DNA of 63,903 bases, counting the filler. It is 11 parts of 11 records of this genome, joined end to end, with 100 filler letters (N's around TTAATTAATTAA, not from the genome) between each part and the next. Parts side by side here need not be neighbours in the genome. Positions count along the whole stretch, not along the records: positions 22,835 to 28,064 come from SRR15195285_949; 10 more parts are not named here. One strand, given 5' to 3'. Both the position numbers and the translations under genes were made by a program. The notes below the pieces were generated by a model. That model was not told the DNA's origin. It made no database searches and worked only from the letters and a program-made list of their open reading frames with translations. This document shows, in pieces, positions 11,596 through 58,572 of the stretch (position 1 is its first letter; every line of letters starts with the position of its first letter).

Positions 11596-11695
11596 NNNNN
11601 NNNNNNNNNNNNNNNNNNNNNNNNNNNNNNNNNNNNNNNTTAATTAATTAANNNNNNNNNNNNNNNNNNNNNNNNNNNNNNNNNNNNNNNNNNNN
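11596..11695. other. Artificial contig linker N44-TTAATTAATTAA-N44 (also at 18199, 22735, 28065, 36289, 40568, 45327, 49606, 53489, 58426)
   Basis: Ten identical 100-bp spacers with stops in all six frames. Genes are truncated at them. Confidence 0.99.
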
Positions 11696-18174: not shown

Positions 18175-18601
18175 GAGGGTGCACGAGGGTGCACGAGGNN
18201 NNNNNNNNNNNNNNNNNNNNNNNNNNNNNNNNNNNNNNNNNNTTAATTAATTAANNNNNNNNNNNNNNNNNNNNNNNNNNNNNNNNNNNNNNNNNNNNGC
18301 GTGACACTGGGCATAAGGCCCTTATGCCTGGTGTCAGAACCCCTCGTGGAGCGGGCGCGTACGAAACCTCAGCACCAACCTGGGTGCAGATCTGTTTTGA
18401 CTTTGCCTTCCACATGAATAGCTTGATCCGGGCCACCACCACTAGTGAGAGCAGCGACGACCTCATAAAGGTTGCCAGATCAATGTCAACTCGCTATTGC
18501 TTGCTAGATAGTGTGAGAAGAATATACTAGCTCTCGCAGCTCAGAGAAGACAGAACCAGTTGGACAAGCTTAATGCACCGCAAAACAGTCTTCATTGAGC
18601 A

Positions 18602-22446: not shown

Positions 22447-23196
22447 TTGTGGTCCACGCGGCGCAAAGCGCAACGATGACTGTCTTACATCGCACGAAGT
22501 CGATTACAGACCCACACGGTCGCGATCCACGAAGCGTCTGCGAGCCAGCGAGCTCTGTATATTGCAGTATGGTACGGCTCTAGCTACTACGTCGACTCGA
22601 GTTGACACTCAACACTAAGCTCTAGGTAACTCTGAATCACCATTCGGCACGCGCACGCGCGCGCGCGCGCGCGCAAACAGACCCGGCGCTAAGGACCCGA
22701 TGTTCAAATCCCGACCAGGGTCAAGTGCCCAGGTNNNNNNNNNNNNNNNNNNNNNNNNNNNNNNNNNNNNNNNNNNNNTTAATTAATTAANNNNNNNNNN
22801 NNNNNNNNNNNNNNNNNNNNNNNNNNNNNNNNNNACACCCCCTGATGAGGTTTGGCGAAGGTACAGAGTCCTCTGCCCACCCCTTCCATGTGAACGGGAG
22901 AGCAGCCCCCCATCGCGAGCTCCCTGCTCACCGCTGATCGGAACGCTCGGTCAGAATCAAGATCGATTATGCCCGGATCCGTTGTATTTTGAAAAGCCAC
23001 GGTATATTGAGTATAATGCAATTTGCCTACTGACTGATGTTGATCAACGGAGGATAATCCTGAATTTTGGCTGCGGAGAATGATCAGTTTGACGTTTGAG
23101 CGAATAAACAGCAGGGTCAGATTCTCACTGGTAAATACAAAGCCACAATTGATCAGATTTCGACTCGGATAGAAAAAAAATGTTTCCTTCTCATTC

Positions 23197-25607
23197 ATGA
23201 ATTCAACCGAATTCTTTCGATTCTTGGTGCATTTTGATTTCTACTCTGGAGAGTCCACACCTACTCTGGAGAGTCCACAAAGTCGTGAACCACAGAGGGA
23301 AGGAACGCTGTCCTCAAAGAAGTATGGCGAGAGGGAGCACGTAATGACCGACTTCAAGCAGCCGCGCAGGCTGTTCCTCGAGCAGCACAATGTCCGGCGC
23401 CAGGCGGGAGGTGACAGGTGGTTGAACAGCGGCGGTAAGAAGGGCAGCATTGTGTTTTGGGTTCGGCCTGGGACTAGGATTCGGAAGCGCTATGGTAAGG
23501 TCGTCGCAGTGAACCGACCAGAGCTGCGGCTGAGGTATGCGGAATTCAGGCTCGTCACCGGCCCGGAGTCCAACCCTGTGTGCAACAAAGAGGGCTGCAC
23601 TGTTTACGTCCTAGATGTTATCCCGAAAGAACACGCCCACAACTCCCGAGCTGCAGCACGTTATCCCGCAAGAAGGCCACCAGTCGTCTTTCAGGGCGGC
23701 GAAACTGGGGCTGTTGTTGATCTTGTGCAGTCGTCCACCTCTACGACAAAGTTCATCAGTTTTCAAGCCAAGAAGCTGGGTGATGATGGTGGTGAGTTGA
23801 TCGAGCTGGGTAACGTAGTGCGCTCTCGGAACGGCGTCACTCTTTCTAGCGGGCAGGGCGATTTTGCTGAGTGGCATCGCCGTGAGTTGTCGGAGGCGCC
23901 GCTGCAAGAAGGAGACGTCATCGGGTACACGAGGCGTGGAACGATTACTCGACAGTGCTCTGCTTCAGGCGACATGATGCTCGGTGTGGTCAGCCATAAA
24001 GCCGTAGTCGAGGGCTCAGCGCCACCGTTGTCCGAACGCAGCCTATACCACACAGTCGCCTATTGTGGCGTTGTTCCCGTGCGTGTTATACCCCGCGCCT
24101 TGGGCACTATCCTATCAAGAGGAGCCCTGGGCTGGGGCGCTTGTACCGGACCATGTGCCAGTGAGTGCGCATTCTACGCTGTGCTTGTATATTGCTTGGG
24201 AAGAAAACCGTCCACTGAGACTGACAGGAAAGGCGCGTGTTTTCTTTCTTCTGATGTTGCACAATGATAGGCGAGGTCCAGGGCCCAACAGCAGGGGACA
24301 TTCTCATTCCGAGCGGACGTTGCGATGGCACTGCTGTGGCCATTTCTGTGAAAGAGCTACCCGCAAGCAGCCGATTGGCCTCGCGCAAAGTCGGTGTCGT
24401 CCTCAATAGCTGCGATTGGGACGATAGTGACAAGGAGGACGGCAGCGTTGGGCAGCTAGTGGAGGCCGTCGTCGCCCCACCAGTCAGCACAGTGGCAGCC
24501 TCATCGACGAAGCTGCCCGTGCGGGCTACAATCTCTTCGCTGAGTATGGTCGTGGTCGCTGGATGCCTAGTTTTTGCGGCACAAGCACTCGCTGCCGGGC
24601 TCCGTGCGCAGCATGGACAATCGTCCTGGGACAAGCCCTGGCATCCGCAGTGTTACCAGCCATATAGAAATCGCAGCGACGGCTACCGCAACGTAGAGAA
24701 CTCGGTATACAGAAACACACACATCGGAAAACAATTCGCGGACGCGTGCGTGCCGTCGCATCAATCGTTGCTGTGCTAGCATTCAATCTTTGCCTTGGGA
24801 ATGCCGGATCTGACTGATCGAATGCTGGATGGACTGCACAGGCCACCTACTAGCTCAGAAGATTTCGAGACATTGTGCCCTATCAATCATGTGATTGCTA
24901 GCTCAACAGTTGACTACAACTTTTTACAAACGACAGACGTTGGCGACGACCGCTGGTATCGCTTCATTGGCCGAGGAGGCGATGCACTACCTCTGTTCCC
25001 AGTACCAGAGTTCCGGTGTGGTACGCATTTTGGCGGCTGGCTTTCCGGGTTCAAACGCGGTCAACTGGATGTGGCGACAACGACCGCAGCACCAAATTTG
25101 GAACCACCAAGTAATCACTGCGACGAAGGTTCGCCTGAGTACAACGCCTGCACGCATTGTCCCCAAGGTGCTTTTGAAGACGGCGGCGTTGACACATTTG
25201 GCAATTTTTGCCGAGAATACTGCTCGGAATCTGGTTATTGCGGCCGAACCGAGATCTACAAAGATGGTGGTCACGACTGTCATGCGTGCAAGCGCTGGCC
25301 GATGGCACCGGAAGGATCTGATGTAGCCGACCCTGGAGGCCCACCTATCGAGTACTCTGAGCCAGGGTGGTATCCAACCGCAGCCGAGGGCAAGGTCACG
25401 ATGACAGCCTGCTTCAGCGCGGGGCACAACTGCTACAACCAGGAAACCGGGACGTGGCAGCCGGAGGCCTGTGGCGGACCAACGTGCTTGAGGCACCAGG
25501 ATGTCCAGGTGGTGCGGTGTGATGGGTTCTATCTTTGGCAGCTGGATTATATCCCGGGTTGTCACTCTGGGTATTGCACGACGGTGTCGGAGGGGCGCAA
25601 CACATGA
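23197..25607 (+). CDS. Single-pass membrane protein: basic putative DNA-binding domain + Peptidase_G2-like intramolecular-chaperone autocleavage domain + TM + uromodulin/GP2/OIT3-type D8C domain (true 5' end uncertain)
   Basis: Three ORFs join in frame via introns 24161-24270 and 24746-24841. Chaperone domain: GDFAEW...GDVIG...GVVS...VAYCGVVPVRV...GDILIPSG..DG. TM: LSMVVVAGCLVFAAQALAAGL. D8C: WYRF.G.GG..LP...CGT..GGWL.G...P...EG.VT..ACF...C....V.V..C.GFYLWQL...C..GYCT. Confidence 0.8.
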
Positions 25608-25731
25608 TGATAATATTGTGGGACTGTTGACTGCGACACCACACACTGGAAAGCAAGTGGCTGACTGGCTGGCTGACTGACTGAGTTAGTGATGCTCATG
25701 TAGAAACGCACTCACCGTACATTTGCCATCG

Positions 25732-27859
25732 CTAAGAGACCGGCAGAAGGACCTCTGAAAGTTCCCCATACCCAGCGTCCCCTGCATAGTGGGCGGCGGA
25801 ACGCAGCCACCTGTCGACAAGTGCGGGGTCTGCGTGGCAAACTCTGAGTAGGTAGCGAATGTTAGAAACTGCACCACGATCTGCTGCATGATGCAAAAGA
25901 GTTGCGCCGATACTAGACCCGCGTGCACACCGACACAAGCAAGTGAGAACAAAAGTTTGGAACAGCACTGCATCAGAGCAAGCTAGTAAATTCTAGTTGT
26001 TTGAGTGTAGAAAGTGAGACAGCTAGCGTTGGTGCGTGACACTGGCCGCGGAAGCGCGTACTGGTCGCGTGCCTCGGCGACAACCTTGCAGCGTTCTCGA
26101 CCATGGCTAATCCATGTATGTTCGCGAGAGAAGCCGAGTAGATTCATTGCATTCCTTGTCCCGATGTTGACTGCAGCTATGGCCCACGATATTGCTGATG
26201 AAAACGCTGTTGAGGGTGGAGATACTGCAAATTTGCATAAACCGACCAGCAGGCGCAGGGAGTCCACGCTTCCTTCTGATGCCACTACGTGGAGGATACT
26301 GTGGCCTCTTCCGTTCAGACCTGTATCCAAGACATTCATGCTGCGTTTCAGTGCTCCAATTAGCAACAGCGTGTGGTCTTGTTAGAATTGCTGCAACACA
26401 CAACGTATACGCGCAGCCCGAGCGGGGCAGCAACACACATGCCACAGCTGAGAGACTCGAAACAGGTACGCACTGAAGCATGTCGTAGTTGCCAAGGATT
26501 TCATCGATGCCACGATCAAATCGCTCGGGAAATCCTGCTGATCAGAGCGTGTGCCACCTTTCACATCCAGCATCCCGAGCAGGCTAGCTGCGCTGGACTC
26601 ATAGTCCATCGAAGCGCGCAACAAACAGGCTCCCAAGCGACTGTCGTCAGACAGCGGTTGATCGCCATCAGGTATCAACTGACCTTGTAGATGGTCATGT
26701 CCGACACTACTTTCACAGTCAGACAAGTCGAGCAGTGGCACAATACCTGCCGCGATGATTGTCTGCCAGCCCTGCGGCTGAGCGAGGGCAGCCCAGCGCA
26801 GAGCCGCATGCACATCTGCCTCGAGACCGGAAGCACCGTTTGAATACTCCTGGTCTAGATCAGCGTTCTGCGCAATACTTTGGTAACGCTGCCGGTCGAT
26901 GAGGCCGCGCGCGCGGAGCATCAGTAGTACCGCACGTGAGTCGCCTCCCTGCACTGCTAGATGCAGCGCACCGTGCCCGTTCACGTTTCTATGCTCTAGC
27001 AGCTGGGATACCGTCCTGTGCATGCACTTCTCGCTGTGCACAAAGTGTCCCAATATCGATTGAATTACTCCGTGTCGCCGTTTCGATACTGCGCTGTGGA
27101 GTGCGGTGCCATTGAGTCTATCGCCGATCAGAGACAAAGATGCTGCCGACTCACCAGCTGCGTGCAGCAGTCCAGCGACAAAGCGAGTGTGGCCATGTCG
27201 CGCAGCAAGGTGCAGTGCCGTCTCATTGTTGGCGTCACCTTGCTCTAGCCAAGTTCGTGTCCACCGGCTACGAGCGCACATGCACCACATATCGGGGTCA
27301 CAGCGCCACAACAAGTTGCGTATCATTTCCGGGTGACCCCGTCGCGCAGCCGTGTGTAGTACGGTATTGCCATCTGAGTCCTCCGCGCGCAATAGATTTT
27401 GCCCACTGTTGAACAGCACTACCGATCGTTAGTGTGTTATGCTAGAGTTCAGTAGGCGAGGTGGCCGGCACGAAGGGCAGCGGACCCCGTGCTACAGTCC
27501 ACGTGTGCGAGAATGATGGACAACTGCGTTGCACTACCAAGCTCGGCGCTCAGGTGAAGCGCGCTCTTGCCCTCGAGGCTGCGCTCCCGCAGCGTCAGCG
27601 AGGTGGTGCTCTCGCCTAACGACCGCAGCAGCGTCTGGAGGCAGCGTGGCTGCCGACGGGCGGCTGCCAGCAGGACAGGCGTCCACGCCACCTGCTCAGT
27701 GAGGAGGGCCGCATCATCACTGAGCGCACCAGCACACTCAATCGGTTGTTGCCAGTCAGCAGTGTCGCTGAATGAGGTGGTCACGCCACACACCGCCATT
27801 ACTGGCAGCCAAATCGTGCGGTGGCACAGCAGGTTTCGACGTGCTACCTTCGCCATCAT
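25732..27859 (-). CDS. Ankyrin-repeat protein, multi-exon (3' end approximate)
   Basis: GKSALHLSA, GNTVLHTAARRGH, NETALHLAARHGH, GHGALHLAVQGG, GHSILHVVASEG. Confidence 0.8.
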
Positions 27860-28164
27860 GCCAGCGCAGTGACGCTGCGACCTGGCGCGCGGAGACCCGG
27901 TGGCGACCGCGCCGCCGGGCGCTCATACGTACGCGCATGCACCTTGCACGCGCGCATTCCTCAACTCGTGCGCGATGGTTGCATTGCGATGTCGCGACGT
28001 CGTGTCAGAATGCAAATCCCGCCGCCGGGCCGCGGAGTGCCCAGGTCAGGCCCGTGGCAACCTGNNNNNNNNNNNNNNNNNNNNNNNNNNNNNNNNNNNN
28101 NNNNNNNNTTAATTAATTAANNNNNNNNNNNNNNNNNNNNNNNNNNNNNNNNNNNNNNNNNNNN

Positions 28165-36288: not shown

Positions 36289-37276
36289 NNNNNNNNNNNN
36301 NNNNNNNNNNNNNNNNNNNNNNNNNNNNNNNNTTAATTAATTAANNNNNNNNNNNNNNNNNNNNNNNNNNNNNNNNNNNNNNNNNNNNCGGGAGAAATTA
36401 CTACCATCGTCACCGTTGCCGAAGAGGCAAGTATCCAGAGCAAGGTGATGGACAAGGTTAAGACTTTGCAGAAGATGGAGTCGGACGCAACTGACGAGGC
36501 GATCCACCTGGCTTCTGGGTACGCCAATGTCATAATGGCAAAGAAGCAGGCATCCATGCTCGATGATTCATTTATTTGGTACTCAAACTCTCAATTCTCA
36601 GTGTGTTGGTCAAATAGACCTACTGCTCCTTGTTCTATTAGTGTGTCTCTCCTCATCTTCTTGGTCAGTGGTTGGTCGTCTTGGGTAAATTTTTGTGAGG
36701 GTGAGGGTTCACGTACGGAAGGAATCGACTGGCTGGAGCTGGATACCGAGTGTTGGCTGTTGCTAGGGTGCTGGAAAAACGGGCAAGCACCACGATATAC
36801 GATTATACTAGTACGTGGCGGTACCGGGAGCGCTGTGAACGGTGCCCAAATTCGCGATTTAGTGTCAATATAATTCTGACTGATCCTGAGCCCCTCAGCG
36901 ACTGCCTCAGAGATCCTGAGAGAAGTTATCGGACACTGACTGGAAATCTGACTGAAATTGACAAAATATTTCGGAATGCATTGCTTATACGATTTTCATC
37001 ATGCATTTCGGTAATTTTGGGACAACCGGATCGATGCATCGGGTCCCTGACGGGTCTGTGCACGCGGACGCACGCGCTCGCGCGCACGCCGGCGCGGACG
37101 CCGCACGCCGGGCCGTGCGTGCCCATACCCTCGCGCTCCACCGCGGAACAACTTTGCTGTCCCGCCGCCAGCATTCTGCGCTGGACGCTTCTCGCTTCCG
37201 CCTTGCCCTTCGCCCCAGTGGCCAAAACCGCTGCGTGAGCGTGCGTGCAGTGCCGTGCGCCTCACGATATTAAGAG

Positions 37277-40513: not shown

Positions 40514-40767
40514 GGCCTTGGCAAAGGACAGTGCCTATGGCTAGCGATGCAAAGTGAACAACGTGTGNNNNNNNNNNNNNNNNNNNNNNNNNNNNNNNNN
40601 NNNNNNNNNNNTTAATTAATTAANNNNNNNNNNNNNNNNNNNNNNNNNNNNNNNNNNNNNNNNNNNNAGGAGAAGGTACTTACGCGCGCGCGCGCGACGA
40701 CCCGCCCCGGCCGGCCGCGCGCGGAGCTGCGTGCGTGGCGCGCGACCCGCGACGTCGGCGGTACCGA

Positions 40768-45326: not shown

Positions 45327-45427
45327 NNNNNNNNNNNNNNNNNNNNNNNNNNNNNNNNNNNNNNNNNNNNTTAATTAATTAANNNNNNNNNNNNNNNNNN
45401 NNNNNNNNNNNNNNNNNNNNNNNNNNC

Positions 45428-49605: not shown

Positions 49606-49815
49606 NNNNNNNNNNNNNNNNNNNNNNNNNNNNNNNNNNNNNNNNNNNNTTAATTAATTAANNNNNNNNNNNNNNNNNNNNNNNNNNNNNNNNNNNNNNN
49701 NNNNNAAAAAGCAGCGACTCGAGGTGGTCAGAGGTGATCACTGTAATTCTCAGTGCGTTCTGCGGTACCGCAAGCGCTGGCCTCTGTGGCAGTGTTGGGG
49801 CTCCAGGAGAAGGCC

Positions 49816-53255: not shown

Positions 53256-53589
53256 CCTTGGCCCTGCGTGAGACGCCGCGTTCAGTGCTGGCACAGTGAC
53301 CGAGCAGCGGGGACGCCGGCCGCCCCTTGCTCGCGTCGAACGATGGCTCCGTGGACGCCGCCGAGGCCGGGACGCGGGTTCGTCGGTGTGTGGCGCTGCT
53401 ACGCTGGACGCCCCGCGGTCTCGGTGTGGCGTAGATCGCGGTTACCGTCGTCGATACCCGCGAGCCCGAGGTGCGTGGTGCATGTACGNNNNNNNNNNNN
53501 NNNNNNNNNNNNNNNNNNNNNNNNNNNNNNNNTTAATTAATTAANNNNNNNNNNNNNNNNNNNNNNNNNNNNNNNNNNNNNNNNNNNNG

Positions 53590-58425: not shown

Positions 58426-58572
58426 NNNNNNNNNNNNNNNNNNNNNNNNNNNNNNNNNNNNNNNNNNNNTTAATTAATTAANNNNNNNNNNNNNNNNNNN
58501 NNNNNNNNNNNNNNNNNNNNNNNNNCGCCAAATCACGTTGGGCAGTATCGCTGTGTCCACCGGCCGCGAGAC

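Follow-up and report, generated by a model that had tools for sequence, protein, structure and literature searches.

The window, i.e., the whole 63,903-base stretch of DNA analysed here, carries on the contig at 22835-28064 a gene for a predicted membrane protein with a domain of the Peptidase_G2 type, the autoproteolytic intramolecular chaperone (IMC) known from phage tail proteins. The segments 23344-24160, 24271-24745 and 24842-25607 join into 685 codons without an internal stop, closed by a TGA at 25605-25607. The contig has a GC content of 53-56%, and its source is a eukaryote, since the gene contains GT-AG introns. Gene and encoded protein comprise the following features.

23296-24160 (+): first exon in the window, between an acceptor AG at 23294-23295 and a donor GT at 24161
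23365-23622 (+): basic all-β N-terminal domain, NAC/WRKY-GCM1-like by AlphaFold2 (AF2) model and fold searches, without a Pfam model
23644-23733 (+): linker, predicted disordered (predicted local distance difference test score, pLDDT, below 50 at residues 103-126)
23734-23859 (+): β segment before the predicted cleavage site, strands predicted at residues 136-143, 152-161 and 164-168
23860-24160 (+): Peptidase_G2-type intramolecular-chaperone domain, part 1, beginning at the D of DFAE
24161-24270 (+): intron 1, GT-AG, 110 nucleotides, phase 1, splitting the Peptidase_G2-type domain
24271-24503 (+): Peptidase_G2-type domain, part 2, with the motifs GD.L.PSG..DGTA and LV..V..P
24534-24602 (+): single predicted transmembrane helix, residues ~361-383, the only strong hydrophobic segment
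24746-24841 (+): intron 2, GT-AG, 96 nucleotides, with an in-frame stop at 24777-24779
24930-25061 (+): D8C-like domain, first half (WYRF.G.GG ... RCGT ... WLSG), aligned with GP2 (7p6r) 56-99 and uromodulin 174-210 and 198-234
25062-25370 (+): Cys-rich insert in the D8C-like domain, without alignment to GP2 or UMOD
25371-25589 (+): D8C-like domain, second half, aligned with GP2 114-153 and uromodulin 220-272

The proposed removal of introns 1 and 2 rests on comparison with relatives whose genes lack them. Junction 1 is spanned by single BLASTP alignments of the joined protein with seven of the intron-less relatives, namely P0009, P0018, P0012, P0022, P0015, P0054 and P0048, and junction 2 by those with two, P0154 and P0155. 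Measured against the intron-less relatives, the reading frames stay open and the conserved motifs run on exactly over both junctions. The closest relatives (P0005, P0007, P0008, P0014, P0172 and P0173) all stop right past the VPVRV motif, i.e., at the end of exon 1, and this common end fits a shared intron 1 into which prokaryote-style gene callers have read. The database gene call for the window locus itself, P0004, runs on into intron 1. The in-frame splicing of three exons claimed in the initial annotation is supported by the open frame, the GT...AG borders and the intron-less relatives, but not by joints in RNA-library contigs.

Contigs of four RNA-library runs were placed on positions 23100-25800, and those of the metatranscriptome runs X1 and X2 cross the introns. 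X1 contigs (24052-24435 and 24538-24972) and an X2 contig (24166-24316) contain introns 1 and 2 unspliced; they could stem from DNA, from pre-mRNA or from retained introns. Because RNA libraries can contain DNA and contigs drop rare forms, splicing of the two introns is neither confirmed nor excluded by these contigs. Their cover of the gene is absent at about 25102-25283.

Upstream of the first exon, an X1 contig carries 137 letters foreign to the window, joined at about 23293-23296, which corresponds to one spliced upstream intron. Moreover, in P0006, a database protein of 99% identity, 41 more residues at the N-terminus precede those encoded from 23296, and a search found neither the upstream exon nor these residues encoded anywhere in the window. 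We hence conclude that the gene is 5'-incomplete in the window, that at least one exon lies upstream of it and that the methionine at 23344 is internal. The start at 23197 given in the initial annotation is intronic; according to the RNA contig joint and P0006, the exon begins near 23296.

Some irregularities were seen around the 5' part of the gene. Relative to the window, P0006 loses the frame at about 23715-23760, after ...GETGAVV, and stops 12 residues on, as if some 43 nucleotides were missing; an alternative form, a deletion in a strain or an error of assembly may underlie this. The contigs of X1 record 1 and X2 record 8 track the window to 23292/23293 and then diverge into two different, unrelated sequences, and at 23241-23279 the window has 20 bp duplicated perfectly in tandem. 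The divergence of contigs near 23133-23293 could come from the boundary of a repeat, from a further transcript or from variation between strains. The X2 contig 24166-24316, nearly all of it intron 1, has a depth of 15.4, above that of every exon contig of the same run (2.5-5.8).

A Peptidase_G2-type domain and its predicted trimer

Searching 1.84 billion representative proteins with the translation of exon 1 (phmmer) yielded 635 relatives at E<=1e-3, 110 at <=1e-10 and 33 at <=1e-30, so that exon 1 is more than a chance reading frame. Exon 1 matches the protein P0122 at 2.5e-10. Against PF11962, the Pfam model of Peptidase_G2 (IMC autoproteolytic cleavage domain), P0122 itself reaches 26.7 bits, the cut-off being 25 bits. 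Four of the nine bacterial relatives scanned lie above this cut-off, i.e., P0260 (30.0), P0184 (28.1), P0179 (26.8) and P0122. PF11962 was also the commonest Pfam family among 47 relatives, with six of them matching at E<=0.01 (best 2.5e-5).

With a profile built from 18 short family members, proteins of bacteria were found at 1e-37 to 1e-21, PF11962 proteins included; these came from Bacteroidales, Vicinamibacteria, Verrucomicrobiae, Chloroflexi and Aliiglaciecola. Precomputed tags among the 120 profile matches listed were PF11962 (10), collagen repeats (3) and YadA-head repeats (2). Run against all PDB sequences at E<=10, the same profile found solely phi29 gp12 (3gqh at 0.0035, 6qz9 at 0.061). 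In this alignment the family motif G-DFAEW falls on S691-D692FAEY of gp12, and the chain in 3gqh, which is the cleaved chaperone fragment, starts exactly at D692. Xiang et al. (2009) reportedly found phi29 gp12 to be cut at that site with the help of the nearby glutamate. The phi29 chaperone is β-stranded and freed autoproteolytically, as stated in the available part of a review (PMC4690869).

Conservation of the Peptidase_G2 motifs was examined over 121 aligned sequences. In 18 of 18 sequences the cleavage motif has its D and E unchanged (D692 and E695 in gp12), as are G.VP and the P, S, G, D, G and A of PSG..DG.A, and a GD-x-[AST]-E motif was present in 134 of 153 stored proteins. By analogy with gp12, the scissile bond in the window protein is predicted to be G|D at 23859|23860. 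A fold search likewise returned the gp12 chaperone as the best structural match of the domain, and among predicted viral structures the top rows included cyanophage 'Peptidase G2 IMC' proteins and giant-virus collagen-repeat proteins (best E 1e-3).

Other searches gave little. With PHROGs and NCBIfam nothing useful was found for the translations of the three exons, phmmer of exon 1 against PDB found eL22 and PsaE alone at E>=0.3, i.e., at chance level, and the ESM Atlas search with P0045 gave sub-threshold leads alone (Peptidase_S74 and G2 clusters at 0.82-0.85). From the sequence comparisons we regard the Peptidase_G2 identity of the domain as well supported. It had been predicted in the initial annotation and now has behind it the link from exon 1 to P0122, the six of 47 relatives and gp12 as the sole PDB match; DFAE likewise lies where it had been placed, at 23860-23871.

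As a side observation, the fold is also found in collagen-repeat proteins of giant viruses (Pithovirus LCPAC101, Klosneuvirus) and in chlorovirus proteins (BFVD, prob 0.96-1.0). Such viral proteins are a possible route of the domain into protists.

Trimer formation was modelled with three copies of the homologue P0046 (residues 1-215), which gave an ipSAE of 0.83 compared with 0.00 for the best of three controls. Contact agreement between runs was at least 72% and pLDDT at least 71. Of proteins solved as same-chain pairs, 21 of 30 attain the score mark used, and of those solved as single chains none of 23 does. Residues 23-43 of P0046, which correspond to the segment 23734-23859, make inter-chain contacts in the predicted trimer, in strands leading into the cleavage motif. 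In the window protein this segment is probably a short trimeric stalk that would be kept on a released fragment.

The basic N-terminal domain, the membrane helix and the ectodomain

The first 100 N-terminal residues have a pI of 10.5 and contain 20 lysines and arginines. They include a domain of about 95 residues with the consensus F.E.P..RR..G.DKW..SGG.KG...W.....G.RKRYG.V....L+F..Y.L, in which E13, R19, D24, W26, S29, G30, G31, G34, Y50 and G51 are invariant over 22 sequences. Of 256 stored proteins, 95 have this domain, in 101 copies altogether, 84 of which are followed downstream by the Peptidase_G2 motif. Tandem pairs without that motif in the called open reading frame (ORF) were found in P0063, P0073, P0119 and P0143, and in P0073 a PARP catalytic domain (E 9.5e-9) precedes the pair.

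In a two-domain AF2 model the pLDDT was about 90 over residues 1-100. Modelled alone, the domain had six strands, a pLDDT of 82 and a predicted template-modelling score of 0.70. NAC domains ranked first for it in all five PDB fold searches, with weak absolute scores. With the whole model Foldseek found 1ut4_B at E 0.066 (prob 1.0), and with the N-terminal domain alone NAC domains were the top four (E 0.065-0.13, prob 0.96-1.0, query template-modelling score TMq 0.53). In a second-look fold search, 11 of the 14 top rows were DNA-binding domains, seven NAC and four WRKY; Ssr4-N was also listed. Neither a recurring Pfam family nor any DNA-binding Pfam family was found among the 22 N-terminal domains, and the ESM Atlas gave no usable match.

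From these models we lean towards a NAC-like fold of the WRKY/GCM1 clan for the N-terminal domain, with some reserve. It does not belong to the NAC family; binding to DNA would be its presumed function. The initial annotation had recognised the basic character of the region and had called a NAC/WRKY-like fold its weakest link: the first agrees with pI and residue counts, whereas the second has the top ranks of five PDB fold searches in its favour, at weak scores and without a link at the sequence level. PsaE and uL23, which appeared as PDB profile matches of the domain at E>=0.11, were judged noise. Also discarded was a zinc-binding finger of the WRKY type (C-x4-C...H-x-H, around 23580-23640), its residues varying in relatives. 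The domain may further bear some likeness to the CG-1 motif of CAMTA.

Beyond the Peptidase_G2-type domain, hydropathy (Kyte-Doolittle, 19 residues) peaks with 2.21 at residues 365-383, the only region above 1.6. A helix within 220 residues past the Peptidase_G2 motif is found in 43 of 44 relatives, i.e., of those stored proteins with the N-terminal domain, the motif and at least 150 residues beyond it. A signal-like hydrophobic N-terminus is lacking in 32 of the 33 relatives that start with methionine and have more than 60 residues ahead of the N-terminal domain. Cysteine makes up 5.0% of the residues past the helix and 1.3% of those ahead of it. The relatives carry a variety of families in this outer part, namely HRM (in two) and, in one each, DUF285, fn2, Kelch, TNFR_c6, ShK, ephrin-receptor-like, PAN and Sushi. 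Together with the topology features, the families of extracellular type among them (HRM, fn2, TNFR_c6, ShK, PAN and Sushi) fit a membrane protein with its N-terminus inside and its C-terminus outside, and with a swappable outer module. The variation is compatible with a sensor role, without showing one, and the gating of cleavage by D8C that the initial annotation considered possible is conjectural. The relatives include Picozoa (single-cell genomes), and the family is large, spread among marine protists and apparently undescribed.

In the window protein, the last 260 residues hold 17 cysteines. Exon 3 matches the D8C region of GP2 (7p6r) with two stretches in the same order (E 7e-4), and a four-sequence profile found uromodulin (6tqk at 5e-4, 6zs5 at 1e-3) and GP2 (7p6r at 9.7e-4, 8xc5 at 0.021), again in two halves. 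The second half has the motif YPT..EG.V...CF ... C ... V.VVRCDGF.LWQL...C..GYCT. The insert between the halves comprises about 100 residues here and about 330 in P0154 and P0155; the longer form has a weak PAN_4 match in P0155 alone (E 0.047) and matches no other family. Precomputed PF23283 (D8C_UMOD) tags are attached to P0262, the window's own product, and to P0263, P0154 and P0155. Direct Pfam scans of P0002 and P0262 gave no PF23283 match, and P0263, an 80% relative, reached E 0.19 and 12.3 bits, the cut-off being 27. At these modest E-values, a likeness of the ectodomain to the uromodulin/GP2 D8C, split by a Cys-rich insert, is supported. The transmembrane helix at about 24530-24600, the Cys-rich C-terminal domain and its D8C character had all been foreseen in the initial annotation; the large insert had not.

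Comparison with known systems, proposed mechanism and alternatives

To our knowledge, MYRF is the sole well-studied case in which a phage tail-spike chaperone is reused for freeing a transcription factor from a membrane. In the available parts of the papers on MYRF and MrfA (PMC3742443, PMC3742440, PMC3828593, PMC8326128), these proteins have a cytosolic N-terminal region with a β-rich domain of DNA-binding type, followed by a self-cleaving trimeric phage tail-fibre chaperone, one transmembrane helix and a C-terminus that is luminal or extracellular. The order of parts in the window protein matches that of MYRF and of Dictyostelium MrfA, with chaperone, transmembrane helix and outer C-terminus in succession. 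The parts themselves differ: the chaperone is of the Peptidase_G2 type (phi29 gp12-like, β-stranded, with a D..E motif) and not Peptidase_S74, the N-terminal domain is NAC/WRKY-like instead of Ndt80-like, and the ectodomain of the protist family varies by member, being D8C-like here. Pfam scans of the window exons and 47 relatives returned no Ndt80-type DNA-binding domain, no Peptidase_S74 and no MYRF homology. The window protein is an analogue of MYRF and not a member of its family.

With the phi29 gp12 pre-neck appendage (PF11962) the window protein shares the homologous chaperone domain and D-F-A-E at the aligned cleavage point, and a trimer is predicted for its homologue P0046. Unlike in gp12, the domain is internal, with a transmembrane helix and an ectodomain after it, and it is encoded by a eukaryotic gene with introns; its passenger is a small basic domain with a β stalk of about 40 residues, whereas that of gp12 is a long tailspike. 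The D8C domain of uromodulin and GP2 (PF23283) is likened by two collinear matches spanning both halves. It differs in that the window domain is split by the Cys-rich insert and has a sub-threshold Pfam score, and in its host, a protist membrane protein compared with animal proteins of the ZP-module type.

In plants, NAC factors of the NTL/NTM type are tethered by a C-terminal transmembrane helix and freed by proteolysis. NAC domains are the best structural matches of the window's N-terminal domain; in contrast to plant NAC (NAM, PF02365), however, the latter has no NAM sequence match and no N-terminal dimerisation part, and its release is proposed to occur by a built-in autoprotease instead of a separate protease.

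By analogy with gp12 and MYRF, we propose the following mechanism. The protein would insert into the membrane as a single-pass type II protein (N-terminus in, C-terminus out), its N-terminus being cytosolic. The cytosolic Peptidase_G2-type domain would trimerise and, like that of phi29 gp12, cut its own chain at the G|D bond of the invariant G-D-F-A-E (23859|23860). The freed fragment would consist of the disordered N-terminal region, the basic NAC/WRKY-GCM1-like β-sheet domain and the short trimeric β stalk, and would enter the nucleus as a trimer and bind DNA. What remains in the membrane would be the Peptidase_G2-type domain together with the helix and the D8C-like ectodomain, the latter, variable as it is in the family, probably being a sensing or sorting part. 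In all this, the identities of the domains, the topology features, the conservation of the cleavage motif and the trimer prediction are in silico results. We give about as much credence to a MYRF-like membrane-tethered factor of this kind, which trimerises, cuts itself and releases its N-terminal fragment, as to all other readings together.

Several points weigh against it. We infer that the protein cuts itself and sets free a fragment that enters the nucleus and binds DNA, and any gating is likewise an inference. The true N-terminus is outside the window, and no joint across introns 1 or 2 was seen in the RNA-library contigs on 23100-25800. The window exons matched no Pfam family at E<=10, the Peptidase_G2-type domain having been scanned as two exon pieces. 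The trimer score, obtained on a homologue and without an alignment, may reflect the model's memory of the solved gp12 trimer. As to the N-terminal domain, its model covers NAC residues ~57/63-170 alone, without the N-terminal dimerisation part of NAC, and nothing upstream in P0006 or relatives is a counterpart of those dimer subdomains. Its profile found no NAC or WRKY protein among PDB sequences, and none of 22 N-terminal domains matched NAM (at E<=10), CG-1 or WRKY in Pfam.

The alternative that survives best keeps the architecture and the self-cleavage and differs in the freed fragment, which would not be a transcription factor; its basic domain would bind RNA, protein or lipids and signal in the cytoplasm. 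The missing sequence link between the N-terminal domain and any DNA-binding family agrees with this, and Ssr4-N and At3g16750, which belong to the same structural group, show no sign of DNA binding according to the available part of Holm 2022 (PMC9252788). On the other hand, sequence-specific DNA-binding domains fill 11 of the 14 top second-look rows, the domain is strongly basic (pI 10.5), and it occupies the place that the DNA-binding domain has in MYRF. We judge this alternative unlikely, at about half the weight of the mechanism proposed above.

Less probable still is a Peptidase_G2-type domain that is cleavage-dead and acts as a stable cytosolic trimerisation module, making the protein a trimeric surface receptor or adhesion protein from which nothing is released. 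Trimerisation is predicted in any case, the ectodomains look receptor-like or adhesive, and the fin of the P22 tailspike is an auto-chaperone domain left uncleaved (available part of the review PMC4690869). A purely structural role would however not lead one to expect a motif D and E invariant in 18 of 18 sequences and a motif kept in 134 of 153 proteins, nor a motif that falls exactly on the cleavage point of gp12.

We consider it very improbable that the locus is no working three-exon gene, with introns kept and truncated products made, or that it is a copy in decay or a structural gene of viral origin. In favour of this, contigs span both introns unspliced with no joint seen, the database gene call P0004 reads into intron 1 and giant-virus and phage proteins have the fold too. 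Against it, comparison with intron-less relatives shows open frames and conserved motifs continuous over both junctions, close relatives have intron 1 in the same position, the run with unspliced contigs also has an RNA contig in which an upstream intron is spliced out, and the unspliced contigs, which may come from DNA or pre-mRNA, cannot exclude a spliced form.

More tentatively than the self-cleaving tethered factor itself, and with well under even confidence, we suggest that the relatives make up a large protist family, so far undescribed, whose members are receptor-like transcription factors, tethered to the membrane and self-cleaving, and in which a second class of phage tail-fibre chaperone was domesticated apart from the S74 chaperone of MYRF. 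If true, such a second independent build from other parts would make this a recurrent design and not a one-off. The DNA-binding module would then be a non-plant relative of NAC/WRKY-GCM1, bearing on the origin of the 'plant-specific' NAC domain, and interchangeable ectodomains (D8C-like, TNFR, fn2, ShK, HRM, PAN, Sushi, Kelch) would link different cues from outside to gene expression. The known range of NAC/WRKY-like domains, and that of the D8C domain of uromodulin, would be extended to marine protists. The family also offers a compact system, with a cytosolic part of about 350 residues and a defined G|DFAE site, and the N-terminal domain of about 95 residues merits its own Pfam model. We found no description of eukaryotic Peptidase_G2 proteins or of such an architecture in literature that was mostly outside subscription journals, which is not proof of absence. 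A term search in the available part of a 2025 preprint on membrane-bound regulators (10.64898/2025.12.20.695554) gave no mention of peptidase, S74 or protists.

Composition of the window and neighbouring sequences

The window contains 20 runs of 44 N, which are paired, each pair flanking the 12-mer TTAATTAATTAA. Each unit N44+TTAATTAATTAA+N44 is a joint between parts, i.e., the window consists of about 11 short contigs placed end to end and is not one locus. Adjacency across the spacers is therefore meaningless. The ten spacers lie at the following positions.

11596-11695, 18199-18298, 22735-22834, 28065-28164, 36289-36388: first five spacers
40568-40667, 45327-45426, 49606-49705, 53489-53588, 58426-58525: last five spacers

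A tblastn search of the whole window with the joined protein found no paralogue in the other contigs. On the same contig as the gene, an ORF without a Pfam match (25986-26381, minus strand) adjoins the ORF of an ankyrin-repeat protein, which is encoded on the strand opposite to the gene at 26385-27428 (−; Ank_2, E 3e-17).

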